From Bacteroidota bacterium (GTDB lineage: Bacteria; Bacteroidota; Bacteroidia; JABDFU01): a stretch of 64,000 bases of DNA. Below, in pieces: positions 7,170 to 64,000 of the stretch (position 1 is its first letter; each line of letters opens with the position of its first letter). The position numbers and the translations under genes are program-made. Location: assembly GCA_013286655.1 (NCBI GenBank), contig JABDFG010000004.1:7008-71007 (forward strand). The letters run 5' to 3'. Under the pieces are notes generated by a model. That model was not told the DNA's origin. It searched no databases and was given only the letters and a program-made list of their open reading frames with translations.

Positions 7170-9242
7170 ATGGCTACCCTCACAAAAACCACTTTACGGA
7201 AATTAGAAAATTACACCCTTGGAAAATGGATCAGCGGAGATGGAGATGGACAGATCCTTTACAATGCCATCACAGGAGATGAAATAGCAAGCACCAGCAG
7301 CAAAGGAATTGATTTTGCAAAAATGACGGAATATGCCCGAAAAACAGGAGGTCCTGCGCTACGTAAACTTACTTTCCATGAAAGAGGACGCAGACTCAAA
7401 GCACTCGCGATGCACCTGCAGTCAAAAAAAGAAGAATTTTACAGGATAAGTTGGGCTACCGGAGCAACGCGTGCGGATAGTTGGGTAGATATTGAGGGTG
7501 GAATTGGTAATTTGTTTTCTTATGCCAGTCTTCGCAGACAATTTCCGGATGAAACCTTTTGCCTTGATGGAGATGTTGCCAAACTTTCAAAAGCCGGAAC
7601 ATTTATTGGCCACCATATTTGCGTACCCAAAGAGGGTGTCGCGATTCACATCAATGCGTTTAACTTCCCGGTATGGGGAATGTTGGAAAAAGTGGCCGTT
7701 AACTGGCTGGCGGGTGTTCCGGCAATTGTGAAGCCTGCAACCGTTACTTCCTTTCTAACAGAAGCCGTCGCGAAGGAAATTATTGCTTCGGGTATTTTAC
7801 CGGAAGGTTCGCTTCAATTGATTTGTGGAAGCGCTAATGGTTTATTGGATCATGTGCTTAACCAGGATGTAGTAACTTTCACGGGCTCCGCACATACCGG
7901 CAAACTGTTAAAAGCTCATCCCCGTCTCCTGGAAGAAGCAGTCCCTTTCAATATGGAAGCCGATTCTTTGAACTGCTGTATTTTGGGTACTGACGTTTCT
8001 CCAGACAAACCTGAATTTGATATTTTTATAAAAGAGGTAGTTCGTGAAATAACCACCAAGGCGGGACAAAAGTGTACCGCCGTTCGAAGGATCATCGTCC
8101 CTGAAAACAAAATAGAAGAGGTGCGCACAGCACTTGGCAAACGTTTGGCACAGAACATTATCGGCGATCCGAATGTGGAAGGAGTGCGCATGGGATCTCT
8201 GGCTGGCCAGACACAGTTAGCTGAGGTGAAAGAAAAGGTTGCTCAACTGAGTAAAACACAAAAAATAATTATCGGAGATTTCGAACAATTTGAAGTAAAA
8301 GGAGCTGATAAACATAAAGGAGCTTTTATGCCTCCGATCATTTTCCTGAATGAAAATCCCTTTAAGAATATAGATTGCCATAGCGTGGAGGCCTTTGGTC
8401 CGGTGAGCACCCTGATGCCTTACAAAAATACAGAAGAAGCAATTCAACTTGCTAAAATGGGCAAGGGCTCCCTGGTAAGTTCCATTATCACTGCGGATGA
8501 CACGATTGCGAAACACTATGTGTTAGGTGCAGCAAGTATGCATGGCCGGATCTTAATTCTGAATGCGGATTGTGCGAAAGAAAGCACAGGACATGGTTCT
8601 CCTTTGCCGCTGTTAGTGCATGGAGGTCCGGGTCGCGCGGGCGGTGGAGAAGAAATGGGTGGCAAACGTGGAGTCTTTCATTATTTGCAGCGCACCGCCA
8701 TTCAGGGCTCCCCCACCACACTGACAAAAATTACCAATCAATACCAATACGGAGCAAAATACCTAACTAAGGAAATTCATCCTTTCAAACGTTATTTTGA
8801 AGAACTTGAAATTGGGGAAACACTTATTACGGATACCCATCTGGTTACACTAAAAAACATAGAAGATTTTGCTGAGTTAAGCGGGGACAAATTTTATGCG
8901 CACATGGATGCCAATTCCCTGGAAGGGACCATTTTTACCGGGCGAGTAGCACATGGATATTACATTTTATCCAGGGCAGCCGGTCTTTTTGTTGACGCGC
9001 CTAAGGGACCCGTATTATTGAATTACGGGATTGATGAATGTCGGTTTACAAAACCTGTTTACCCGGGTTCTACGATTGCGGTCCGGTTCACCTGTAAAGA
9101 AAAGGCCGAACAGGAAAAGAAAACACCCGAAGACATTGCAAAGGGCATTGTAAAATGGCTGGTAGATGTTTACGATGAAACAGGTGAAACAGTTGCGATT
9201 GCTACTATTTTGACGATGGTAAAAAAGAAAAATCAAGATTAA
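7170..9242 (+). CDS. paaZ: bifunctional oxepin-CoA hydrolase / 3-oxo-5,6-dehydrosuberyl-CoA semialdehyde dehydrogenase
   Basis: 690 aa. An N-terminal aldehyde-dehydrogenase fold ([17 protein letters not shown]) is joined to a C-terminal MaoC hot-dog domain ([10 protein letters not shown]). Confidence 0.85.
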
Positions 9243-13100: not shown

Positions 13101-13262
13101 TTCACTAACTCGGAGGCAACCATTTCAGGAATGCCTCGTCTTATCAACAAACTCATTTTTTAACTTAATTAAAACCTCATGGAAACGAAAACCATTTACA
13201 AAAACCCATTGCATTATCTGCAATTTTTTACTAGATTTGAGTATAAACCAATAATTAGCCTT

Positions 13263-14219
13263 ATGTCTAAAAAATTACTTTCTCTTGCCGTTATAGCGTC
13301 TTTAACTTTTGTAACGAGTAGCTTTGCGCAACAGGTTCCAAATAGCAGCTTCGAAACCTGGGGGGCCGGCCCTCTTGGTGATGATCCGGTTAGCTGGGGA
13401 ACTCCGAATATTTTCAGTAATCCCCTTTTAGGTAGCAGTGGCGTTTCCGTCACTAAAAACACAACGAATTTTCACACCGGATCCGCAGCAATGCAGATCG
13501 TTACCACTAAACTTTCCGCCTCAGCGCCTCCCGGTACTTCTACTTATCTGCCTAATGGAACACTTGATTTTGCTTTTACAGGTTCTATTACAGCCAGCAC
13601 TCCTTATTTTCATCCGGGCTATGCTGAAACAACACGTTACGCCCAGCTTAATTTTTTTGCTATCTATATACCAGAGGCCAGCAGCAGCGATGTAGGAACC
13701 TGCACTGCATTCTTATTTAAAACAAACGGATCCGTAATAGACACCATTGCTATTGGTGCAACTACTATTTCCAAAACAGCTTCGGCAACGTCCTTCTCTT
13801 CTTTCACCGTTAATCTTTCCTATCGCTCAGGCGAAACTCCTGATTCTGCTGCCGTTGTTTTCACCTCCAGCGGAACGAAAGCGCAGGCAACATACGGAAG
13901 CACCCTTATTGTGGATGATGTGACTTTCAGTGGGATCGTTGCAGGTGTTCATGAATACAGCTTGCTTTCAGGCAATATGAATGCATTCCCAAATCCTGCT
14001 ACAGAAAGCATTACACTGAAAACTACAAACAACTCCAATCAAAACCTTTCCTTAGTGGAAATTTTTGATATAACAGGCCGTAAAACGGATGCCGTTTTGG
14101 TTCAAAACAATCAAACAACCTTGAACACCAGCGCTTATGCTAAAGGCTTATACCTGTACAATGCGTATAACGAAAATCATGAATTGATGGGTGTTGGCAA
14201 ATTTACTGTCGCAAAATAG
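13263..14219 (+). CDS. secreted protein with a T9SS type-A C-terminal sorting domain
   Basis: I chose the ATG at 13263 (MSKKLLSLAVIASLTFVTSSFAQ). The N-terminal VPNSSFETWG motif is present. The C-terminus AFPNPATESITLKT...GLYLYNAY...KFTVAK is a Por-type CTD. Confidence 0.75.
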   Translation: MSKKLLSLAVIASLTFVTSSFAQQVPNSSFETWGAGPLGDDPVSWGTPNIFSNPLLGSSGVSVTKNTTNFHTGSAAMQIVTTKLSASAPPGTSTYLPNGTLDFAFTGSITASTPYFHPGYAETTRYAQLNFFAIYIPEASSSDVGTCTAFLFKTNGSVIDTIAIGATTISKTASATSFSSFTVNLSYRSGETPDSAAVVFTSSGTKAQATYGSTLIVDDVTFSGIVAGVHEYSLLSGNMNAFPNPATESITLKTTNNSNQNLSLVEIFDITGRKTDAVLVQNNQTTLNTSAYAKGLYLYNAYNENHELMGVGKFTVAK

Positions 14220-29727: not shown

Positions 29728-29929
29728 AAAACAAACTACAATTAGAAACTTAATGTTTAGCCATAGATTTATTTGACAAGCAGAAACCGAATACATAATT
29801 TAGCCCATCAAATTCTAACTGCATAAATTGGGCTACAGTCTACCTCGGTGAAGGCTTTAAGTTTATTGTCTGCATTAGCCTTTGAGTACAAACCAACGAA
29901 CGTCGCTACTAATTTTTGAAAATTTATTT

Positions 29930-32593
29930 ATGAAAAACACTTTACATAAAATTAGCAAAGGACTAATTTATCTCAGTTTGGGAATTTTAATTGCATCAGA
30001 ATCTCTTCCTGCACAACATGTTTACCCATCAGCTGGCGCCTTTTGGGTGGGAGGTAATGGAAACTATAATCCCACTGATAGTGCAACCAGAGCACAGGGA
30101 TTAAAAACAGATACTAACGTTTTCAACTGGGAAGCACATCATGCAGATTTTGGTGCCTGGATGACAGCTTCCTATTGGTATAACAATAATAACAATTTTA
30201 CACTTTTGGATTACATGTATACCGGACAGATAAGCCACGATGGCTTGTATGTTTGGGAAATTGGCTTTCACGAGCAGGCGATCCGTTTAGGGCATAATTG
30301 GGAAAATTACTTTCTTCATTATAGCCAGGATACCTGGCTCACTTATACCACGTTATATGGAGATTCCTGTGCCTGGGCCGGTGTTGCTTCCGGTGTTGGC
30401 TATACAAGGAGTTCCAGTGATCAAAATGGGCCTGTCCTGCATGGTACAGGAACATGGCATGCCGATATTTTTCAGTATGTCCCGGAGGGAGGAGCCTTCT
30501 ATCTGGTAAATCCGGATAAATTCGGAGAAGCTACGCTCTCTTTCGCTACAGGTGGAACTAATGGAACAATTAGTATTGAATATGCTTCAGCGGTGGATGC
30601 TTATTTCAATGTAACCCAATGGAGTCCTTTGAATCTGACCAGTGATGGAACAAATAATTTTAGTCAGAATGGGAGAATAAGCTGGGCACCTCCTGCTAAC
30701 TGGGTATGGGGGAATAACAGTTCGCTTCAGTTGGCAGACCGGAAAAATTTTGGTTACTGGATTCGCGTTACGGGTACAGGGTATAGTCAGATGCCGATTT
30801 TATCTAATCTCAAAACAAGACAATATCTTGGTCTTGCCAATTACACCTTAGACCCCTCTGGTCCACTTATTACTACGGGCCCAAAGTTTTTATTGAATCT
30901 AGGATGGGATTCCATCAATGACCGCAATCACGACGGATATGTAGATGACTCTGAATACCAAAGCCTGCTGGATCCAAATGCCAAGGCCCGTTTCCGGTAC
31001 GAAGCGCGACTGGCATTGAATAACGTCGGTTTCTGGGACTATTGGTCACCATGCATGACAAATACAGGAAATCCACAGTACCAGCAGGACATAGGAGCAT
31101 TCTATCGGTCTAGTTGGGAAAGCAATGGTGTAAAAGGGGGGTACAACGATAATTTTTTTGTTAATCTCAATAAGTGGTTCTTTCCGGTTCTGGCCGGAGG
31201 CCTGCTGACCCCAGAGGGGCCGATTCGGGGACCTGTCCAGGATACCTCAGCAAATTTGGCTTACAGTACGGGCTTCGCTGCCACACTTAAGGCTGTGAAA
31301 AATAGCACAGGCAGTAATTGGATCGGAGCGAATATTTACTTCATCAATCCTTATGATTACCATGATTATTGCGTTCCCTACCCGGATTTGGGAAAGGAAA
31401 TGCTGAATTCGGGCGCTTTTGATTGGTTACTCTCAGAAGCTACGATTTACGATTCCTGGTCCATGGTGGATGCATCTTCTTTTTTGGGACCGTTTTCAGG
31501 TCTAAGTCGGATATGGAATATCCCGGCATGGGCAAAGGCTGGAAAAAAATCGGCCATCATGGCCAGAGTCGGTTCTTACCTTCTGACTCCACCGAGTACA
31601 GAAGCCAAATGGGAACGCTCCCAGATGGGAATATTGGCTGAGTATTACCTTTATCATTTCCCAAATCTGACGTCGTTGCAAACCATTTATACCAATTGTG
31701 GTGATATTACACAGCTAACAGATACATCTAATTATTATAAAAAGGGTGTTCCTAAAAATTATGCTTATCAACAGCACGCTATGATGGCCGTTGACATCGG
31801 TACTCCAACAGGCATGATGCCTCGGCAGGGAGTGTATCGTCCTATGCAATATACAGCACGGGTTGATGGAACCGGCGAGCTTAATAATACGGTTGTTGGA
31901 AATTCTATTGGCACGGTATTAAATCATCCCGTCTATGGTTCTATTCCTGTGCTTCCGACGGCCACCTATTATCTGGACACGATTGCCAACGCACCTTATA
32001 CAACGATTGTTAATGACCCGAATGGACATCCTTTTCCGGCAGAAGTTGTTTTGGCAAGACAATACACCAAAGGGATGGTGGTCTTCCGTACTTCTTTTAC
32101 TGCACCAACAAATTTTTTGGAATATAGTTCTGATGCAAATGAAATTACTGTTAATCTGCCGGGATCTTATTATAGAGTAAATTATGACGGAACTCTAGGA
32201 CCTTTATCAAATCAGGTCAGACTGCATGGTTTTGAGGGTGCAGTGTTCACAAACACAAGCACAGCACCCGGAGATATAGGTATTCGCACTAGGAAAAACA
32301 ACATGATACTCAACGATTCGTCAAGCACAACTATCATAGTTTACCCCAACCCCTGCTCAACACAGAATATGGAATCTCAGATCAATTTCGGTCAAATACC
32401 TGCGGGCAGCAACATGAAATTATTTTCCATGTCAACGGGTCGCCTGATAAAGACCATGATCGGATTATCGGGAACAGCATACTGGGATCTTACCAATGAT
32501 TCAGGAGAAAGTGTTGCGTCGGGAATATACCTCTATGCAATTACAGACCAGCAAAACAATACGGTCCGTGGGAAAGTTTGCGTTATACGTTAA
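29930..32593 (+). CDS. large secreted protein of unknown function with a T9SS type-A / FlgD-Ig-like C-terminal domain
   Basis: I chose the ATG at 29930 (MKNTLHKISKGLIYLSLGILIASESLPAQ). The C-terminus is VYPNPCS...GIYLYAITDQQNNTVRGKVCVIR. I could not place the ~800-aa N-terminal body in any family with confidence. Confidence 0.65.
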   Translation: MKNTLHKISKGLIYLSLGILIASESLPAQHVYPSAGAFWVGGNGNYNPTDSATRAQGLKTDTNVFNWEAHHADFGAWMTASYWYNNNNNFTLLDYMYTGQISHDGLYVWEIGFHEQAIRLGHNWENYFLHYSQDTWLTYTTLYGDSCAWAGVASGVGYTRSSSDQNGPVLHGTGTWHADIFQYVPEGGAFYLVNPDKFGEATLSFATGGTNGTISIEYASAVDAYFNVTQWSPLNLTSDGTNNFSQNGRISWAPPANWVWGNNSSLQLADRKNFGYWIRVTGTGYSQMPILSNLKTRQYLGLANYTLDPSGPLITTGPKFLLNLGWDSINDRNHDGYVDDSEYQSLLDPNAKARFRYEARLALNNVGFWDYWSPCMTNTGNPQYQQDIGAFYRSSWESNGVKGGYNDNFFVNLNKWFFPVLAGGLLTPEGPIRGPVQDTSANLAYSTGFAATLKAVKNSTGSNWIGANIYFINPYDYHDYCVPYPDLGKEMLNSGAFDWLLSEATIYDSWSMVDASSFLGPFSGLSRIWNIPAWAKAGKKSAIMARVGSYLLTPPSTEAKWERSQMGILAEYYLYHFPNLTSLQTIYTNCGDITQLTDTSNYYKKGVPKNYAYQQHAMMAVDIGTPTGMMPRQGVYRPMQYTARVDGTGELNNTVVGNSIGTVLNHPVYGSIPVLPTATYYLDTIANAPYTTIVNDPNGHPFPAEVVLARQYTKGMVVFRTSFTAPTNFLEYSSDANEITVNLPGSYYRVNYDGTLGPLSNQVRLHGFEGAVFTNTSTAPGDIGIRTRKNNMILNDSSSTTIIVYPNPCSTQNMESQINFGQIPAGSNMKLFSMSTGRLIKTMIGLSGTAYWDLTNDSGESVASGIYLYAITDQQNNTVRGKVCVIR

Positions 32594-39573: not shown

Positions 39574-40137
39574 CTACACCGTCATGATCTCCTTCTCTTT
39601 CCCTTCCAGGTGCTTTTCAGCTTTGACCGCATAGCCGTCCGTCAATTGCTGAACCTTCGCCTCCGCTTCTTTGGCTTCGTCTTCGGGCAAACCATTTGCC
39701 TTTAATTTTTTGATCGCATCATTTGCATCTTTCCGGATGGTCCGGAGCGTGACTTTACAATCTTCGCCTACTGTTTTTGCTTTTTTCACCAGATCTCTTC
39801 TTCTTTCTTCTGTCAAAGAGGGAACGTTGATACGAAGAACCGTTCCATCACTTTGGGGATTGAGGTTCAGATTTGCATCGATAATAGCTTTGGACAAAGG
39901 TTCCAGCATTGCTTTTTCCCAGGGCTGTACGACTATTGTACGTGCGTCCAGGGTATTGACATTGGCTGTCTGATTTAAAGGCATTTTTGACCCATAATAG
40001 TCAACCATAACACTGTCAAGCATGGAAGGATTCGCTTTTCCCGCCCTCACTTTTAAAAGTTCGTCTTCTAAGTGCGAAATCGCTTTTTCCATAAGCTGTT
40101 TGGCGGCATCTAAACAAGTTTGAACTTTGGGATCCAT
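39574..40137 (-). CDS. frr: ribosome recycling factor
   Basis: 187 aa. Full-length RRF similarity (LKVRAGKANPSMLD, PSLTEERRRDLVK). Confidence 0.95.
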   Translation of the reverse strand: MDPKVQTCLDAAKQLMEKAISHLEDELLKVRAGKANPSMLDSVMVDYYGSKMPLNQTANVNTLDARTIVVQPWEKAMLEPLSKAIIDANLNLNPQSDGTVLRINVPSLTEERRRDLVKKAKTVGEDCKVTLRTIRKDANDAIKKLKANGLPEDEAKEAEAKVQQLTDGYAVKAEKHLEGKEKEIMTV

Positions 40138-40138
40138 A

Positions 40139-40180
40139 GGAAGGATTTAGGATTATTGAATTTAGGAATTAGGATTTAAC
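40139..40180. repeat. degenerate heptamer tract (GGATTTA/GGAATTA), opposite orientation
   Basis: The sequence aaggatttaggattattgaatttaggaattaggattt lies immediately upstream of the frr start codon. Confidence 0.7.
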
Positions 40181-40286
40181 GTTTTAGATATCGGGCTAAT
40201 TCCAAACTTTAGCTAAGTTATAGTTTAATCAATAATTCTACAAATCAAATATTCCCATAAATTTTCCATTCCCTTATTTTGACAAT

Positions 40287-41993
40287 CTATTTCTTTGCTT
40301 CTTCGGTTAATAATTCCTCCAGTTTTTTTAACCGATCTTCGTATTGAGAAAATTTTCGCGTGTTTTCCAATTTTATTTTCTCTATTTCCGACTGTTGATT
40401 GTTATTGTTCGCTTCTAATTTAATGATTGCAGATCGCTGATCTTCAATCATTTTTTGTTGTTCTTTAATCGCCTCTACCAGAACCGGTGTAAGTTTTGCG
40501 TAGTCAATACTTTTGTATCCGTCTTTATTTGTGGTTACTATTTCAGGGAATGTTTTTTCCATTTCCTGGGCAATGAATCCAATATCTCTTTTGTCATTAA
40601 AATGCATGTTGGGAAACTCGCCTACACGCCAATTGTATTTAATACCCTGCAATTTTAACAAATCAGGTAAAACATTTTTCAAAGAAGTGATGTCTTTTTT
40701 ATATCTAATGTCTGAACAAGTCATAGAGCTAAGCCATTTATTGCAATTATTGACAAATACATCATCAACGTATAAATCTTTCCAAAAGTTGTTTGGAGTT
40801 GAACCAAGATTTCTGGAATGATTTGAATCTGGCACTACATCTCCCCCAAACACATAGGTTTCATTACCAGTAACGTCAAAATATACCACTCCTTGCGCAT
40901 TATTAACTCCCACTAAATTGTTTCCATAAGAAATCGAAAACGGAGAGGGCGATCCTCCCGGAACCGAAATCCGGACTATTTCCGAATTAAGAGCCCCTGA
41001 AACTTCTAATTTTGCACCTGGGGCGATTGTGCCAATGCCGACATTACCATTATTTTCAATTCGCATAGCTTCAGAAGGAACGCTGGCAGCGTTTTTGGTC
41101 ACCGAAAAAGTGAGATTCGTGCCACGGGCCAAATCAGTCCAGGCCGGATCTGTAACATTGGCGGATATGTTGGCAGTTTGCAAATAAGGTGTAGGCGAGA
41201 ATACATAGCCCATAAATGATAACTGACCAATCACGTCGTTTTGTAGCAAAGTGGATGGAGCGCCAGGCGTACCACGCGCTTTTTTAAATGCAATTTGAGC
41301 CCCGCTGACATCCGCACTGTATCTATTTGCCGCAATACCGGTAATGCCCAAAACCTCCAGATTGCTCAAAGGCGCTGTCGTACCAATCCCCACATTACCG
41401 CCGGCGAGAACCCTTAAACGTTCGGTATTAGCCGTACCAAAAACCAAATCCTTGTTGTCCCTGGTTCCTAAAAAATTAACCGGAGGATTCGTCCCGTTAT
41501 TGCCATGCAATAACCACGCAGTTGAAATAATAGAATCCTGAATAAGCGTTTGTATCGGAGTTCCGTTGATATACAAAGAATCTGTTTTTGTTGTTTTACT
41601 TGATATGTAGGTATTTATAACTGTATCGAACTTAGCATAATTGACTTTCAGGTAATTTATAATTGCGGTATCAGCCGTTATATTAGTCGAGTTAAAATAT
41701 TTATTGGAAAGTGAATCGGTCGTGCATATTCTTTCCCAATTTGTTTTCATTCTATACCAAAAGCATTGATCCTGCTTATTAAATACAATAAGGCCATTCG
41801 CCGGGTTTACGATTGCCTTTATCTGCGAAGAATCGAGCCTTGTCATTAAAAAACCCTGGGTAATACCTTCCAGGTCAAGTATAGCGGAATTATCCGGCGT
41901 TAAAGACCCGATTGAAACACTTTTATTCTGCGCAAAAATGCCGCTCAGAGAAAATGACATTACTGCAACGCAAAAAACGATTTTCTTATTCAT
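40287..41993 (-). CDS. secreted tail-fibre-like protein with a C-terminal S74 intramolecular-chaperone (endosialidase chaperone) domain
   Basis: 568 aa with a signal peptide. GNVGIGT(T/I)AP..(N/K)LEV motifs occur twice. The C-terminus reads CSDIRYKKDITSL..LQGIKYNW...GFIAQEMEKTFPEIV...SIDYAKLTPVLVEAIKEQQ and is followed by a coiled coil. Confidence 0.75.
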   Translation of the reverse strand: MNKKIVFCVAVMSFSLSGIFAQNKSVSIGSLTPDNSAILDLEGITQGFLMTRLDSSQIKAIVNPANGLIVFNKQDQCFWYRMKTNWERICTTDSLSNKYFNSTNITADTAIINYLKVNYAKFDTVINTYISSKTTKTDSLYINGTPIQTLIQDSIISTAWLLHGNNGTNPPVNFLGTRDNKDLVFGTANTERLRVLAGGNVGIGTTAPLSNLEVLGITGIAANRYSADVSGAQIAFKKARGTPGAPSTLLQNDVIGQLSFMGYVFSPTPYLQTANISANVTDPAWTDLARGTNLTFSVTKNAASVPSEAMRIENNGNVGIGTIAPGAKLEVSGALNSEIVRISVPGGSPSPFSISYGNNLVGVNNAQGVVYFDVTGNETYVFGGDVVPDSNHSRNLGSTPNNFWKDLYVDDVFVNNCNKWLSSMTCSDIRYKKDITSLKNVLPDLLKLQGIKYNWRVGEFPNMHFNDKRDIGFIAQEMEKTFPEIVTTNKDGYKSIDYAKLTPVLVEAIKEQQKMIEDQRSAIIKLEANNNNQQSEIEKIKLENTRKFSQYEDRLKKLEELLTEEAKK

Positions 41994-43014
41994 CTTTTTT
42001 ATCCTTATTTATATCTGTTTCCGGCTTTTCCGGTTCAATCACTGCTTTATTTTCCTTTGATGGCTCATGACCAATCCCTTCTTTGTCAATTAATAAACCT
42101 TTTTTAGTCATGGGTTCTTTATCATAAATATCCGGTATCCCGTCATTATCCGTATCTATTAAACAGCCATGTCTGTCAACCTTTTGACCTCTCGGCGTAT
42201 CAGGGCATTGATCATCAAAATCCCTTATCCCATCACCGTCTGAGTCTGCCTTTTCCATAACCCCGAAATTAGAATCCGTAAGTTTGGCCTTTGTTGCGTT
42301 GAAATGAAAACACAGACCAACCTTATTATAAAACAAAAAAGTTGATTTTAACTCGGGTGTATTAGCTACCTTCTGTACCAGGGGAACATACAATGCGGAT
42401 CCGAAATTTGCAGAGATTCTGTCACTCAAATGTAAATTCAGCCCGACAGAAATATTGCCAAGCAGCATGCCAAAATTTCCAATGTTTGTTGCGTATTTGA
42501 AATCCCTTTCTACCTTGGTTGAGGTGAAAATGGCAGCATACGATTGCGGCTGATTCCGGATAGAGCCATCAGACCAATAATAATAAGGATTGCCGCTTGC
42601 ATCTGACAGATCCTGGGATAAATTATAATACATCCAATCCAATCCGAAACCTGATTCTACACTTACCATTTTTAGATTAACCGGACTGTACGACAAACCG
42701 AGACCTACAGAATTGCCATGAGCCTTGAAGTTATTTGCCTGCAAATAATAATTGCTGTTCTGACCATAATTCATCGAAACATAATGTGAGTTAATGCTCA
42801 CTGCTTTAAATTTTCTGATCATTGAAACCTGGTAGGAGGGAGAGTTATCAGTGCTAAATGGCACCGAGCGGTTATTTACAGAACCATAATAAGTAAGCAT
42901 ACCACATTCTCCTTTTAGAGCCCAGGCATATTGTTCATCGTATCCAATATCCTTATTCTGAGTAAAAGCTTCAACACTTGTAATTACTAAAAATAAAAAC
43001 GCGTATAGTTTCAT
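41986..43014 (-). CDS. outer-membrane beta-barrel-like protein with thrombospondin type-3 (Ca-binding) repeats and no OmpA domain
   Basis: 342 aa. Signal peptide, about 240 aa of alternating beta-strand pattern, then DSDGDGIRDFDDQCPDTP and DTDNDGIPDIYDKEP repeats and an acidic/lysine tail. Confidence 0.6.
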   Translation of the reverse strand: MKLYAFLFLVITSVEAFTQNKDIGYDEQYAWALKGECGMLTYYGSVNNRSVPFSTDNSPSYQVSMIRKFKAVSINSHYVSMNYGQNSNYYLQANNFKAHGNSVGLGLSYSPVNLKMVSVESGFGLDWMYYNLSQDLSDASGNPYYYWSDGSIRNQPQSYAAIFTSTKVERDFKYATNIGNFGMLLGNISVGLNLHLSDRISANFGSALYVPLVQKVANTPELKSTFLFYNKVGLCFHFNATKAKLTDSNFGVMEKADSDGDGIRDFDDQCPDTPRGQKVDRHGCLIDTDNDGIPDIYDKEPMTKKGLLIDKEGIGHEPSKENKAVIEPEKPETDINKDKKDE

Positions 43015-44786
43015 TTTAATAACGTAATAAATCCATTCATTTTTTGATCTTCGTTTCCATTATTTGTTTGTAGTGTAAAATAATAGGTTCCTTCAGGACA
43101 CAGCTGACCTGAAGAGGTTCTGCCATCCCAGGATAAATTTTCCTGTGTGCCTTTGTATACAAGCAAACCCCAACGATCCAAAATCTGAATGGTATAATTT
43201 TGAATGCAAGTACTTTCAATAGAAAATACATCATTAATACCATCCCCATTCGGAGTAAATACATTTGGAATTTTCAGGTAACAATCAATAAGCAACTTTC
43301 TTTCAGTTGAATCTTTGCAACCAAGTGTATCCGTTACGACCTGTTTTATTAAATAGTTACCGCCGTTGGAATAAGAGGTTTGAGGATTCGGATTTTTTGA
43401 GGTATAGCCATTGCCAAAGTCCCATAACCAGGAATTGGCTCTTTGACTACTATCCGTGAAAGTAATGGGTGTATTTAGGAATAAGTTAACATAGCTAACT
43501 GAAAATCCGGCTTTCGGACCTTGCGAAACAGTAATTGATTTTGAAACAGTCGTTGAGGAACACCCTGATGTAGGATCCGACACTTTTAAAAACAATTGCT
43601 TCTTACCCTCAGATGTAAATTTTACAGTAACACCCTCAGCTGTTGTATCACCAAGAAAGGTGGCATCCGCAGATGTCCAGGAATAAACATAACTACCCGC
43701 ATTATTCATATACGCTTTGTAATTTGAAGCAGACAATCCGCAAAGCAAATTTTCCCCAGCCAACGAATCAATAATGGGATTGTTTTTTTCTAAAGAATAG
43801 GGATTATCTGTAAAGTTATTCCACCCTGAGCGCTTTACAGCACTATAGGAATTAATGTTCGAGGTTACACCATTATTAGTATTTATCCATTTTAATCCCG
43901 TTTTTTCCCAATTCCCAATTTCATTCCAAAAACCATCTGTTGAATTTAAGTAAGCTATATACAAATCAACAGGAGAAGTACCGTTCAGACGATTAATCGT
44001 ATGGTAAAAAAAAGGATTTACTGCACACACAGTTGTATCCTTATTGGATACGTAATAACCATTTACATCCGGTTTTTTATTTTGAAAGGATAAAGCAAAT
44101 TCATTATCTGAAATATCATTAGGAGTAAGGGCTATGGGCCTAAAACGTCGGGGGCCAATTATTGAACCGAATGGCAGGTAGTACGTTTCAACACTATTTG
44201 TTTTGCGGACAAGTCTTCCGATATCCAGCGTTGAAATAAAGCCTTCACTACCTAAAACCGTACTTGCATCTATTGCCGAAGCCTTAGGGTTTTGAATAAA
44301 CAAAGTATCTTCATTTATTGCAAGCTCTGAAGAATTTAAGTGTAGGTTATTATAAACATTGGCATTAACCATTAGTATTTTTCGTCCTACCCCTTCAACA
44401 GACAGGTTATAAAAACTCGTTATACTATCCCCCTCAATATACTCAGTCAATCCTTTCAAATGTACAAAACTGGTATCCATAGCAAAATGTGCTGAATTCA
44501 CCCAATTGAGAGAAACATCATACTCTCCGTTTCCCTTTTGTTTACTATTGTGCAAATTATAAAAAGAGGAATCGATGACTAAAATCCCATTATTATCGCT
44601 AAACGCATTTGAGTCATTTTCAAACGAACCTTCAACTCTCAGTTGTAAACCAGGATCAGAATGAAATAGCTGACCTTTATTATATAAAAGTTGAGCCTTC
44701 GAATTAAAAGAAATTAATACAAGTAAGGTGAAATATCGTAAATAGTTACACGCTGCTGAGTGCTTTAATCCATAACAGGTAACCAT
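43011..44786 (-). CDS. PKD-domain surface protein with a T9SS type-B (gliding-motility-associated) C-terminal domain
   Basis: 591 aa. Signal-like N-terminus, PKD motif WLWDFGNGYTS..., and a C-terminus IPNVFTPNGDGINDVFSIE...YFTL...GFITLLK typical of type-B CTDs. Confidence 0.8.
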   Translation of the reverse strand: MVTCYGLKHSAACNYLRYFTLLVLISFNSKAQLLYNKGQLFHSDPGLQLRVEGSFENDSNAFSDNNGILVIDSSFYNLHNSKQKGNGEYDVSLNWVNSAHFAMDTSFVHLKGLTEYIEGDSITSFYNLSVEGVGRKILMVNANVYNNLHLNSSELAINEDTLFIQNPKASAIDASTVLGSEGFISTLDIGRLVRKTNSVETYYLPFGSIIGPRRFRPIALTPNDISDNEFALSFQNKKPDVNGYYVSNKDTTVCAVNPFFYHTINRLNGTSPVDLYIAYLNSTDGFWNEIGNWEKTGLKWINTNNGVTSNINSYSAVKRSGWNNFTDNPYSLEKNNPIIDSLAGENLLCGLSASNYKAYMNNAGSYVYSWTSADATFLGDTTAEGVTVKFTSEGKKQLFLKVSDPTSGCSSTTVSKSITVSQGPKAGFSVSYVNLFLNTPITFTDSSQRANSWLWDFGNGYTSKNPNPQTSYSNGGNYLIKQVVTDTLGCKDSTERKLLIDCYLKIPNVFTPNGDGINDVFSIESTCIQNYTIQILDRWGLLVYKGTQENLSWDGRTSSGQLCPEGTYYFTLQTNNGNEDQKMNGFITLLK

Positions 44787-44804
44787 AACTAATGACTAAG
44801 GCCT

Positions 44805-44812
44805 CAAATTTA
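44805..44812 (-). promoter_or_regulatory. -7 box TAAATTTG upstream of the three-gene surface cassette
   Basis: Exact match on the minus strand, with 18 nt between the box and the ATG at 44786. Confidence 0.45.
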
Positions 44813-45002
44813 CCAGTATTAAAACCCGATATAGGGGAATCTGAAATATTTAACATTATGTTATTATGATTAACAATTATTTAACCTGAAGAGTGGTAAA
44901 ACCCAATCAGAAATAAGGTCAAATTTTAAAAAAACGGAATTGATCTGAATCGAATGTTTTCAGATCGGCAACATTTAATGGAATTATCCAATTCCTTAAT
45001 CC

Positions 45003-45719
<717 letters not shown>

Positions 45720-46688: not shown

Positions 46689-47654
46689 CTATTTCTTTCT
46701 TGCCTGACCAGGACGTGAGGAAGCTCCTCCTGGGCGGGAAGAAGAACCACCCGGACGTGAGGAAGAATTACCTGGGCGTGACGAAGTAGATGGAGCAGCT
46801 CCTTTACGCGGGCGTTGCTTGGTGGCAACCGCCTCAGGACGCGCTTCTTCTTCTGAATATTTTTTCAACTTCGAAGAGCCGCTGATCAATTCTTCTGCTT
46901 CTTCTTTCGAGGTTTTATCTTCTGCATCAGCCTTCTCTTCAGCGGCAGCGGCAGCTTCTTTGTCCATTTTCCGATCTCCTAAACCTTCTTCAATTGCTTT
47001 AACAATAAGTTCAGTTATAATAGCAATAGAGGAGGAAGCGTCATCGTTTCCAGGAATAGCAAGATCTACCTTGTTAGGGTCAGAATTCGTATCAACAATC
47101 GCATAGGTTGGGATGTTCAAACGTTTTGCTTCCGCAACAGCAATGTGTTCCTTCATGATATCAACAATAAACAAGGCTGCTGGAAGACGTGTTAAATCGG
47201 CTACGCTACCCAATTGTGATTCAAGTTTCGCCCGCTCGCGGGCAATCATCAAACGCTCCTTTTTAGAAATATTATTATAGGTACCATCCGCTGTCAACTT
47301 ATCGATTTGTGCCATTTTACGAATGGCCTTACGGATAGTGGCGAAATTAGTCAACATGCCACCTGGCCAACGTTCCGTAACATAAGGCATGTTAATGCGT
47401 TTTACCTTTTCAGCAACAATTTCTTTGCCTTGCTTTTTAGTAGCAACAAATAATATTTTTTTACCTGAACGTGCAATCGCTTTTAAAGCAGTAGACGCTT
47501 CTTCAATTTTAGCAACTGTTTTATTCAGATCAATGATATGAATCCCATTCTTTTCAGTAAAAATATAGGGAGCCATTGCAGGATTCCATTTTCTACGTAG
47601 GTGACCAAAATGTACACCAGCTTCGAGTAAATCGTTGAAATTTGTTCTTGACAT
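46689..47654 (-). CDS. rpsB: 30S ribosomal protein S2 with a ~85-aa C-terminal low-complexity extension
   Basis: 321 aa. The S2 core is present ([20 protein letters not shown]). The tail is acidic and then contains (S)SSRPGG repeats. Confidence 0.95.
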
Positions 47655-62114: not shown

Positions 62115-64000
62115 CTATTTTACCACTACTTTTTTCACAAACAGTTGGTCATCAATTAGCAATTTAACAAAATAGACACCGGAATTCAGCTCAGAGGCAT
62201 TGAAAGCATACTTATAATTTCCGCTTACTAAATTCTGACTCTCAACCAGATCCGCAACATCTTTGCCCAATACATTAAATACTTGTACCGAGACTTTGGC
62301 GCTATTAACCAGGCTGAAGTTCACGGTTGATTTGTTTTCAGAAGGATTGGGATAAATAGTAAAATCCAGGGCACTTTCAACCAGGTCATTCATACCGGTG
62401 ATATTATTGCTGCTGCTGATATTAATGTCGTCCAGGTAAATATTATTTCCGCTTCCATTGGTAAACTGAAACATAATCCGCACATTTTTGTCAGAAGCAT
62501 AGAGGGTTAACGGCACGGAATCAAGTCTCCACTGACTCGCAGAATTCGGCGTAAATGCTGAACTTTCTACCTGAGGACTTACCGTAGAAAGTACACTACC
62601 CGACTTACTTTGCCTTGCTGCTCCCCAGTTGGCTCCGCAATTGGAAGATACAAATACGCTCAATTTATCAGTACTGCTGGCATTAGATTGGGCGTAGGCA
62701 ACCCGGTAATATAATTTAGGATTGGAAATAGTAGTCAAGTCGATGGTTGGACTTATCAGCTGACTATAACTTGACGAATCGCTGTCAAAATTATTGATAA
62801 AAACACTTGAACTACTGGAATAGCCGACAGTGTTGGTAGTTGTCCAGGTATATTTATTGTCGCTTGTAACATTGTTTACTGTCCAGTTATTGTTAGGAAC
62901 AGGCCCTGATTCAAATCCTTCTGTAAAAGGAGCCACATGTTCTGCTGTAGTGGCAAATACCGTAATAAAACCACTCTTTGTAATAGCAGGGGAAGAGGTT
63001 CCATTACTTACCGTCAGCGAAACATCATATGTTCCGGCAGCAGGATACATAACTTCAACCTGAGAAGTAGTACCTGTGCTGGGACTACCTCCAGGAAAGG
63101 ACCAATTCCAACTGGTAGGAGTACCATTCCAGGAATTATCCGTAAATGTGGTATTGCCTCCTTCGCAAAAAACAAGTCTACTTGCACTAAAATCCGCAGT
63201 ACATAAATTATTCACAGTAGTATCTATATTAACACCTGTGGCAATCAGGTTGGAAGGCTGCCATAATGAGCTACGCGAGGCAACCCCGGAATTAAGGGTC
63301 GCCTGCATACGCGCGGCCTGACCCGCAGTGAACATTTCACTGCAATAAGAGTACTCCATATAGTTCTGATAGTTTTCAACTGTTGGTGGGTTACATACTT
63401 CCGCCTGACTAAGCGTTGAAGGACAGAAATTGAAACCCTGTGTGTCAGGAGTGTCATTGACATTATCAGAACCTGCACAGGAAACACCCGGAGAATTGGT
63501 TGGCCCCCAGGGGTGATACAGGTTTAAACAATGCCCTATCTCATGCGTAAGCGCCCGGGACGTTTCCGGATTCCCCGTACCAATATTTCCAATATAAGTA
63601 CTTAATATAACAACCCCGTCATCAGCCGATTTCGGCATAGCGCCAGGAAGATAGGCATATCCTGCAAGATCTCCACTCAACGTTGCCACCACCCATATAT
63701 TCAAATATTTCGAAGGAGACCATTGATTTAATTTTGAATTATCCCCTGCATTATAGGTTAGCAGACTGGGAATACGATCAATTCCGTTGGTACATTTACC
63801 ATTCGGGTCTATTTGCGCAAGCCGGAATTCTATATGGCAATCAGCCGCAATTGTTTTGAACTGTGAAATAATAAGAGAGGTATCCGAATTAAGTTTACGG
63901 TAATCCTTATTAAGTTGAACCATTTCGTTATAAATCTGTGCGTCCGAAATGTTTTCCGGACCATAATTATGAATAATGTGAAAAACAAGAGGAATCACAT
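62115..64000 (-). CDS. secreted M43-family (cytophagalysin/pappalysin-like) zinc metalloprotease with a PKD domain and a T9SS type-A CTD; the 5' end lies beyond the window
   Basis: The ORF stays open to the window edge. It has the metzincin motif HEIGHCLNLYHPW and a PKD-like WNWSFPGGSPS...YDVSLTV. The C-terminus is IYPNPSENKSTVNF...GVYFVKLL...KKVVVK. Confidence 0.85.
   Translation of the reverse strand, partial: VIPLVFHIIHNYGPENISDAQIYNEMVQLNKDYRKLNSDTSLIISQFKTIAADCHIEFRLAQIDPNGKCTNGIDRIPSLLTYNAGDNSKLNQWSPSKYLNIWVVATLSGDLAGYAYLPGAMPKSADDGVVILSTYIGNIGTGNPETSRALTHEIGHCLNLYHPWGPTNSPGVSCAGSDNVNDTPDTQGFNFCPSTLSQAEVCNPPTVENYQNYMEYSYCSEMFTAGQAARMQATLNSGVASRSSLWQPSNLIATGVNIDTTVNNLCTADFSASRLVFCEGGNTTFTDNSWNGTPTSWNWSFPGGSPSTGTTSQVEVMYPAAGTYDVSLTVSNGTSSPAITKSGFITVFATTAEHVAPFTEGFESGPVPNNNWTVNNVTSDNKYTWTTTNTVGYSSSSSVFINNFDSDSSSYSQLISPTIDLTTISNPKLYYRVAYAQSNASSTDKLSVFVSSNCGANWGAARQSKSGSVLSTVSPQVESSAFTPNSASQWRLDSVPLTLYASDKNVRIMFQFTNGSGNNIYLDDINISSSNNITGMNDLVESALDFTIYPNPSENKSTVNFSLVNSAKVSVQVFNVLGKDVADLVESQNLVSGNYKYAFNASELNSGVYFVKLLIDDQLFVKKVVVK

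Follow-up and report, generated by a model that had tools for sequence, protein, structure and literature searches.

Relatives within tra operons of a three-gene surface-protein cassette lodged between pyrH and frr in a Bacteroidota bacterium

The genes pyrH (UMP kinase) and frr (ribosome recycling factor) are frequent neighbours in bacteria, and the question raised by the stretch of DNA analysed here, 64,000 nucleotides of contig JABDFG010000004.1 of a Bacteroidota bacterium (hereafter the window), is how three genes for surface proteins came to lie between them, and what these genes may do. The interval is filled by three intact minus-strand open reading frames (ORFs), which encode a 591-amino acid (aa) protein with a PKD domain and a type B CTD (C-terminal domain) of the T9SS (type IX secretion system) (gene 1, 43011-44786), a 342-aa OmpA-like beta-barrel protein (gene 2, 41986-43014), and a 568-aa tail-fibre-like protein (gene 3, 40287-41993). 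Genes 1 and 2 share a 4-nt ATGA stop/start overlap (43011-43014), genes 2 and 3 an 8-nt overlap (41986-41993). ORFs, coordinates and overlaps are as reported in a preliminary description of the locus, and its domain calls, a PKD domain with a type B CTD, a barrel with thrombospondin type 3 (TSP3) repeats and no OmpA domain, and an S74 fibre with a signal peptide, agree with Pfam and NCBIfam. On balance, and with moderate confidence, we regard the cassette as an operon for a surface fibre used in cell contact and for two envelope partners, and as a detached, reordered copy of a tra-operon module inserted into the pyrH-frr spacer. The module was probably derived from the apparatus of a conjugative element, as the genomic context of its relatives suggests.

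The corresponding interval was monitored in relatives. Eighty Bacteroidia loci were fetched by means of pyrH (70-83% identity), frr and the cassette proteins were located, and 74 of the loci could be assessed. The two genes lie within 300 bp of each other in 49 of the 74, are 300-1000 bp apart in three, and 2.4 kb apart in one; in 21 loci frr is absent within 3-8 kb of pyrH. The notion that pyrH and frr are usually adjacent therefore applies to the 49 loci, but fails in the 21, which include Chitinophagaceae and the closest metagenome-assembled genomes (MAGs; L010, L013 and L023). Cassette genes were found in none of the 80 loci; the best relatives of the window, also Bacteroidia, are 82-83% identical in pyrH and 68% in tsf. 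Since pyrH and frr are mostly adjacent, and the cassette is missing in all the related loci, the cassette is a lineage-specific insertion, as had been proposed, and not an ancestral arrangement.

The single 2.4-kb gap, found in Flavobacteriales bacterium UBA6049 (L038, 1663-3532), holds three opposite-strand genes unrelated to the cassette. Judged by eye only, one product resembles a sigma factor and another a membrane protein, and the remaining one is without assigned function. The junction has here been interrupted independently, by unrelated genes. In relatives whose pyrH is not followed by frr, T9SS cargo is often encoded downstream of pyrH (L013:3644-6262, L023:11074-14589, L083:8802-16607), in the form of DUF7619, M4 peptidase and Ig_7/HYR proteins, all with a Por_Secre_tail. 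Lineages lacking frr at this place may thus use the stretch behind pyrH as a variable locus for surface proteins.

The three families co-occur elsewhere as a unit, as anticipated. The module was identified in nine distinct loci, namely the window, L008, L001, L003, L005, L173, L176, L177 and L180. Homologues are few (barrel 43-57% identity, CTD protein 52-63%), and their contigs show the three families side by side; across all the module loci, identity to the window proteins is 41-63% for the CTD protein and 34-57% for the barrel. Seven of the nine loci lie in divergent, conjugation-type tra (type IV secretion) clusters of Bacteroidota, with homologues of TraG/VirB4, TraJ, TraK and TraN (DUF4138), in which the module adjoins TraM and TraO. 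Five of these (L001, L003, L005, L176 and L177) exhibit the order fibre, in some cases a tetratricopeptide repeat (TPR) protein, CTD protein and barrel, directly followed by TraO. In L001 and L003 the upstream side begins with TraG/VirB4, TraJ, TraK, DUF4138/TraN, TraM and a conserved protein of ~295 aa; L005 begins inside TraM, and the short contigs L176 and L177 show nothing beyond the module and TraO. As L177 sets in within the TPR gene upstream, its visible part of the module is limited to the CTD and barrel genes. The same tra cluster in L173 has the fibre and the CTD protein and lacks the barrel, and a divergent cluster in L180 (CTD protein 41%, barrel 34% identical) carries TraN, TraM and TraO, then fibre, CTD protein and barrel. 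L008, in turn, shares the order of the window (CTD protein, barrel, fibre), and lies beside an SprB-like gene, not beside pyrH or frr.

The Tra proteins of these clusters have diverged to 22-40% identity, and match Bacteroidetes conjugative-transposon NCBIfam models only under the curated cutoffs. CTD-protein and barrel genes are tightly juxtaposed in each of the eight loci which have both: they overlap by 4 nt in five loci and by 1 nt in another, and are 3 nt apart in the remaining two. In neighbour-joining trees the window and L008 copies are sisters, with 72% bootstrap support for the CTD protein and 60% for the barrel, and both trees nest these standalone copies among the tra-linked ones. 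The simplest reading of these topologies is one detachment accompanied by reordering, after which the copies came to reside at different sites of the chromosome. The preliminary description of the cassette as an acquired or lineage-specific module is supported as regards lineage specificity, but missed that the module is mainly a component of tra operons, from which the window copy would be a detached and reordered derivative.

Two further proteins were observed in these clusters. A TPR-like protein of ~520-620 aa accompanies the module in one tra sub-lineage (L003:6559-8259, L176:400-2268, L177:1-1497, L180:14306-15859), and is absent from the window; in L003 and L176 its gene separates the fibre gene from the CTD gene, in L177 it comes directly upstream of the latter, and in L180 it lies downstream of the whole module. 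An unannotated protein of ~295-315 aa, without Pfam or NCBIfam match, always comes after TraM (L001:4529-5425, L003:3825-4703, L005:858-1736, L173:7476-8375, L180:5210-6154), and in four of these five loci is encoded ahead of the fibre.

No target-site duplication or direct-repeat scar was found in the flanks by direct and inverted repeat searches. Low-complexity tracts in opposite orientations do flank the cassette (40139-40180 and 44981-45003), as had been noticed, but their inverted similarity is at the level of chance, the same score being reached in 214 of 500 shuffles. No integrase or transposase accompanies the cassette in the window, in keeping with the preliminary description, and neither a tRNA nor an Rfam match was found; phage structural or lysogeny genes are missing among the window proteins scanned, and Tra homologues are missing from the 64 kb, the standalone copy thus lying outside any tra cluster. 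Relative to other window genes, GC content of the cassette genes is 1.1-2.4 standard deviations (SD) lower, and GC at third codon positions 1.0-2.9 SD lower, a weak compositional hint of foreign origin. A phage or prophage origin was considered and rejected, given the lack of phage genes in the window, and of IMG/VR relatives or PHROG matches of the barrel and the CTD protein.

What the three products may do is best approached gene by gene; all the domain coordinates given below refer to the minus strand. The product of gene 1 starts with a signal peptide, read from the sequence as a hydrophobic N-terminus (FTLLVLISFNSKA before QLL, ending in SKA before Q) and conserved in the orthologues. An uncharacterised N-domain follows (residues ~33-345; 43752-44690), lacking Pfam or PDB relatives, then an Ig-like domain, a PKD domain (43302-43481; Pfam 7.9e-11), and the T9SS type B sorting domain (43014-43277). 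The latter is recognised both by CHU_C (PF13585; residues 504-590, 1.1e-23, 83.6 bits against a cutoff of 27) and by TIGR04131 (65.4 bits against a cutoff of 35). In the AlphaFold2 (AF2) model, of pLDDT 73, a beta-rich N-region made of short strands precedes the Ig/PKD domains and the CTD. GhpA, the grappling-hook protein of Aureispira, has in its residues 5647-5892 a homologous counterpart to residues 337-575 (E 1e-66).

The N-domain is widespread. It matches at least 615 representative clusters, 185 of these at E up to 1e-30, and is placed N-terminally in all but a few of 150 listed proteins, which range in length from ~300 to 2,900 aa. Among 60 relatives sampled, 49 end in CHU_C and seven in a type A CTD. 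A Pfam scan and a PDB profile search with the N-domain alone gave no match, fold searches with the CTD-protein model returned only Ig/PKD chains, and in a search of known plasmids the N-domain found no match and the barrel matched at the TSP3 level only. The window contains two proteins with a type A CTD (Por_Secre_tail), at 13179-14219 and 62115-63998, the latter an M43 peptidase with PKD and MAM domains; the host thus probably has a T9SS, and the product of gene 1, on the strength of its sorting domain, would be exported by this route and retained at the surface.

The gene 2 product carries an N-terminal signal peptide, again read from the sequence, and is predicted to fold into an 8-stranded OmpA-like barrel (42304-42927). 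The AF2 model, of pLDDT 78, exhibits eight strands, has OmpA, OmpX and Ail as best fold matches, and in Foldseek superimposes on the OmpA transmembrane domains 9fzc, 9fzd and 1bxw with TM-scores of 0.72-0.79. Family alignment reveals that strands 5 and 6 are joined by a conserved loop of 40 residues (42490-42612), in which YxWSDG is invariant; TSP3 calcium-binding repeats (~42100-42264) come after the barrel. The TSP_3 match of the window protein is weak (2e-4, under the Pfam cutoff), and support for the assignment comes from 21 of the 24 family members, and from D-x-D-x-D columns that are invariant. OMP_b-brl is found in 14 of the 24 relatives, and the family also matches DUF6089. OmpA_C (PF00691) is absent from the gene 2 product and from all the 24 aligned members, the protein ending after the TSP3 repeats. 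If the topology is that of OmpA, the YxWSDG loop would be extracellular, and the TSP3 repeats periplasmic.

The best distant matches of the gene 2 product are Bacteroidota OmpA-family proteins of the OMP_b-brl, TSP_3 and OmpA_C type, which similarly carry an N-terminal 8-stranded barrel followed by TSP3 calcium-binding repeats. In contrast to these, the gene 2 barrel lacks the OmpA_C peptidoglycan-binding domain and has the conserved 40-residue YxWSDG loop, and its wider subfamily ends in EF-hand domains instead. Barrels of this wider family, with C-terminal EF-hands, are generally not found beside CHU_C genes, and the barrel family as a whole is therefore not tied to T9SS cargo. Assignment of the barrel to PorP/SprF (PF11751) was rejected, as none of the 24 family members matches at E up to 1, and the predicted fold rather suggests the 8-stranded OmpA type. 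On one metagenomic contig (L114:1502-11650), five tandem paralogues of the wider barrel/TSP3/EF-hand family were observed.

The fibre encoded by gene 3 has a signal peptide which, judged from the sequence, ends in IFA before Q, a conserved domain at its N-terminus (41574-41930), corresponding to PF26696 (PTL_trimer) in precomputed annotation, a repetitive shaft (40923-41468), recognised by homology to fibres of Bdellovibrio, and a C-terminal S74 intramolecular chaperone (40290-40715; Peptidase_S74, PF13884, 2.9e-13). The SDxxxK motif of the latter reads CSDIRYK, with the serine at position 427 and 141 residues after it, and is intact in all the fibre orthologues of the module. The N-terminal ~120 aa are conserved among orthologues, shaft and length (494 to 1132 aa) being variable. 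Phage tail-fibre PHROG families match residues 221-537 (up to 2.6e-27); barrel and CTD protein have neither PHROG matches nor full-length relatives in IMG/VR. In a phmmer search of PDB, residues 176-357 matched the mosaic adhesive trimer (MAT) fibres of Bdellovibrio (8oml, 9.3e-12; 8ond, 2.6e-9; 8ol4, 8e-8), and the fibre also matches 6f45, a T4-like distal fibre chaperone. The family counts more than 3,143 matches, nearly all of the PF26696 (PTL_trimer) plus S74 type. The preliminary description correctly called an S74 tail-fibre protein, but did not recognise this membership: the fibre belongs, by its sequence, to a very large Bacteroidota family resembling the Bdellovibrio MAT adhesins.

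According to Caulton et al. (2024, PMC10769870), MAT fibres consist of a signal peptide, a conserved N-domain of ~130 aa, a trimeric shaft, a variable tip, and an S74 domain in which SDxxxK is found; to which element of the surface the N-domain binds was given as unknown in the same study. The S74 subgroup of B. bacteriovorus MATs and the window fibre are both cell-encoded, not phage-encoded, and have in common the repetitive, in the window fibre presumably trimeric, shaft with its G-N-V-G-I-G-x-x-A-P-x-x-x-L-x-V loop motif, the variable tip and the C-terminal S74 chaperone with SDxxxK. In the window fibre, too, the signal peptide is followed by an N-terminal domain, which is conserved across Bacteroidota fibres (PF26696), and may be a counterpart of the ~130-aa domain of the MATs. 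They differ in that MATs are from Bdellovibrionota and the window fibre from Bacteroidota, and in that the fibre gene of the module is fixed beside a T9SS cargo gene, often with an OmpA-like barrel, and usually inside a tra operon. S74 domain and shaft repeats are also shared with phage tail fibres and spikes, such as K1F endosialidase, T5 pb1, and the T4-like distal long tail fibre (6f45); unlike these, the window fibre has a Sec signal peptide and a cellular N-domain, no phage genes lie near it, and its partners have no IMG/VR relatives.

The pairing of a fibre with an N-domain protein extends beyond the trio. In the outgroup locus L175 a PTL-type fibre adjoins an N-domain protein without CTD, and in the outgroup locus L181 the C-terminus of an S74 fibre lies directly upstream of P0078, a 27%-identical outgroup protein. 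A Chitinophagaceae MAG fetched for its pyrH only (L083, 11030-14475) encodes a PTL-type fibre, of 609 aa and without S74 match, directly upstream of an N-domain protein ending in a type A CTD (Por_Secre_tail); the pair lies ~2.3 kb downstream of pyrH (8001-8699), among other T9SS cargo genes, so that fibre and N-domain protein are paired here independently, and once more close to pyrH. When ~1.9 Mb of loci chosen without regard to these genes were searched, the sole fibre N-domain match adjoined one of only two N-domain matches. Either gene can also be found alone, as an N-domain gene without a fibre beside it in L142, and a lone fibre gene in a chromosomal context in L178.

Parts of the cassette are each of a known kind, a T9SS type B cargo, an OmpA-like barrel, and an S74 tail-fibre-like adhesin. 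No paper was found on the trio, on T9SS cargo or on S74 fibres in Bacteroidota tra operons, in agreement with the earlier remark that no characterisation of the trio as a unit was known to its author. Neither the three-gene combination, nor the N-domain family, the fibre/N-domain pairing, and the placement in tra operons, nor a type B cargo gene which is coupled to the gene of an OmpA-like barrel and has no PorP/SprF gene adjacent, were found in the literature searched.

A working scheme can be proposed. All the three proteins would be exported by Sec, their signal peptides, as read from the sequence, ending in A or T before Q. The gene 2 product would insert into the outer membrane as the predicted 8-stranded OmpA-like barrel, plausibly with the YxWSDG loop outward and the calcium-binding TSP3 tail in the periplasm. 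The PKD protein would leave through the T9SS by virtue of its type B CTD, and stay on the surface. Its membrane platform could be the barrel, or a PorP-like shuttle encoded elsewhere may serve; we infer these two options from the coupling of CTD and barrel genes in all the eight loci which have both, and from the lack of an adjacent PorP/SprF-like gene in the loci examined. The fibre would trimerise with the aid of the S74 chaperone, which, its motif being intact, may then cleave itself off at S427. The N-domain of the fibre would dock on that of the PKD protein, displaying the variable tip, as suggested by a gene adjacency kept across distant lineages. The tip may finally bind another cell or surface, which would be the mating partner for tra-linked copies, and would mean general adhesion to cells or surfaces for the window copy. 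For the former a mating role is suggested by the fixed place beside TraM and TraO across deep divergence. Gene structure, domains, predicted folds, intact motifs, recurrence and genomic contexts can be taken as shown. The function of the cassette as an outer-membrane-anchored fibre or adhesin, put forward already in the preliminary description, is presumed, and co-transcription of the genes, export routes, protein contacts, surface display and ligand are likewise all predictions.

On proteobacterial plasmids mating pairs are stabilised by the F protein TraN, which binds OmpA of the recipient, and by the PilV tip adhesins of R64. If the reading of the tra-linked copies is right, the module would resemble these systems in that a transfer operon encodes an adhesin of the surface whose recognition tip is variable. 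The two are not known to be related in sequence or structure, however, and the module would use Sec and T9SS, not a pilus, and a fibre of the phage-tail-fibre type.

Several points weigh against the picture of a detached tra-operon fibre module. Every localisation and interaction step is one that we infer, and the fibre has no T9SS sorting domain that would account for its crossing of the outer membrane. The known anchors of type B cargo are PorP/SprF-like proteins (PMC9143113, PMC12618676), and an 8-stranded barrel anchor is without known precedent. The barrel is dispensable for the fibre/CTD pair, as it is absent from L173 and from the outgroup pairs. No relaxase or coupling protein was seen in the stretches of tra loci examined, so that the term conjugative rests on homology below the cutoffs. 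Bootstrap support for the nesting of the standalone copies is moderate, and all the instances of the module come from uncultured metagenomic contigs, several from one project. Finally, a pilus adhesin encoded by an integrative and conjugative element (ICE) of Bacteroides was dispensable for transfer, and location on a mobile element is therefore no proof of a mating role.

A bolder formulation is that Bacteroidota PF26696 fibres are displayed by T9SS cargo proteins whose 310-residue N-domain is the dock, that in one lineage of conjugative elements this pair, joined by an OmpA-like barrel, became part of the tra operon and serves to recognise recipient cells in a phage-like manner, and that the window copy is a domesticated derivative. 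We offer this formulation tentatively, as a possibility that we hold to be rather less probable than its negation.

Alternatively, the module may be an adhesin cargo of benefit to the host, serving attachment to surfaces or particles, or capture of prey or partners, with no role in DNA transfer, and mobile elements would only carry it; the window would then be just another site at which it landed. Two of the nine loci are standalone, a lone fibre gene is chromosomal in L178, and the L083 pair sits among other T9SS cargo genes; the sizes of the fibre family (more than 3,143 matches) and of the N-domain family (615 clusters) exceed the needs of a single tra lineage. Precedents, in addition to the dispensable pilus adhesin of the Bacteroides ICE, are MAT fibres and GhpA, which act in prey capture. 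Yet, in seven loci the module is not placed in a region of cargo genes, but within the tra operon itself, where TraM and TraO lie on either side of it or next to it, and the module has stayed put while the Tra proteins diverged to the extent reported above, which argues for integration with the tra apparatus. Altogether we consider mere cargo an unlikely explanation, though one to be taken seriously.

According to a different view, the cassette would be a canonical T9SS type B locus, made of cargo, PorP/SprF-like anchor and PorE/OmpA-like tether, to which an unrelated fibre gene was appended. Type B cargo needs a PorP/SprF-like shuttle, often encoded alongside, and orphan cargoes are served by shuttles encoded elsewhere (PMC9143113, PMC12618676); since such orphans exist (PMC12618676), the missing adjacent PorP/SprF gene does not exclude gene 1 from the type B cargoes. 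GhpA is a T9SS substrate, and its locus also encodes PorP-like and PorE-like proteins (bioRxiv 10.1101/2024.01.29.577165). Like sprB-sprF and the ghpA-ghpB(PorP-like)-ghpC(PorE-like) locus of Aureispira, the cassette combines a type B CTD, which exceeds the curated cutoff, PKD/Ig-like repeats, and a gene for an outer-membrane barrel directly downstream, in the usual porP/sprF position; the CTD region is moreover homologous to the C-terminus of GhpA. The barrel, however, is predicted to be 8-stranded and OmpA-like with TSP3 repeats, not PorP/SprF-like. No member of its family matches PorP_SprF or has an OmpA_C domain, and a PorE/OmpA_C tether is missing. PorP_SprF gave no match in the window proteins scanned, several smaller ORFs lying outside the scan, and no ORF is so annotated in eight related loci. 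The cargo of the cassette is short (591 aa) and has a distinct conserved N-domain, and the CTD-less fibre belongs to the unit, being co-inherited with the CTD protein in every assessable locus, and is hence no accidental neighbour. This explanation appears very improbable.

Slightly weaker still, and in our opinion likewise very improbable, is the idea that the cassette is a decayed, nonfunctional remnant of an integrated conjugative element or prophage, which would fit the tail-fibre homology, the relatives on tra elements, the low GC and the lack of mobility genes, but not the full length of the three ORFs relative to orthologues, the conserved motifs with SDxxxK intact, the preserved overlaps of starts and stops, the same reordered arrangement intact in the different context of L008, the lack of IMG/VR relatives of barrel and CTD protein, and the lack of other phage or tra fragments in 64 kb.

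Upstream of pyrH (45003-45710, minus strand; Pfam AA_kinase), rplM, rpsI, rpsB and tsf lie on the same strand as the cassette; frr (39574-40137, minus strand; Pfam RRF, 9.7e-63) is the downstream flank. A TAAATTTG sequence, resembling the Bacteroidota -7-type promoter box, is found at 44805-44812 on the minus strand, 18 nt upstream of the ATG of gene 1, and is plausible by position only. It had been noticed as a box belonging to the cassette itself; the sequence is indeed there, but TAnnTTTG matches counted across the whole window (66 observed vs 73 expected) are indistinguishable from chance, and the box alone is therefore no evidence of a promoter. A scan for sigma-70-type promoters was at background level as well. 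An 8-bp hairpin, GATCTGAA/TTCAGATC, followed by a run of seven T residues (44928-44966, minus strand; sequence and fold), lies 37 nt after the pyrH stop. Being missed by a terminator scan and having a fold z-score of -0.84, not significant, it is a possible weak terminator dividing pyrH from the cassette.

At the other end, 149 nt separate the stop of the fibre gene from the start of frr (40138-40286, minus strand). Inspection by sequence, terminator and box scans, and folding revealed neither a terminator-like site nor an exact TAnnTTTG box in this spacer; closest to the box comes TAAAGTTTG, with one extra base; folds of the flanks are not significant. The lack of both signals makes it possible that frr is read through from the cassette, on which expression of this essential gene may depend. 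Elsewhere in the window, rpsB (46689-47654) is long, 321 aa, with a C-terminal low-complexity tail of repeated SSSRPGG units, and a 903-aa ORF with a TTG start (29882-32593) has no Pfam match at E up to 1e-5.

As the insertion is directly upstream of frr, this essential gene may now be co-transcribed with an acquired surface operon. That a type B cargo gene is steadily coupled to one for an OmpA-like barrel, while PorP/SprF genes are not adjacent, would extend the rule of T9SS anchoring. Tail-fibre-like adhesins encoded by cells are abundant in Bacteroidota, and have recently been shown to mediate cell recognition in Bdellovibrio; the conserved partnership of fibre and T9SS cargo genes is a candidate answer to the question of what anchors fibres of the MAT type. 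If the tra-linked copies act in mating, conjugation in Bacteroidota would use phage-like receptor-binding fibres to choose recipients, and such a choice, if true, would matter for the range of hosts which gene transfer can reach in communities of the gut and the environment.

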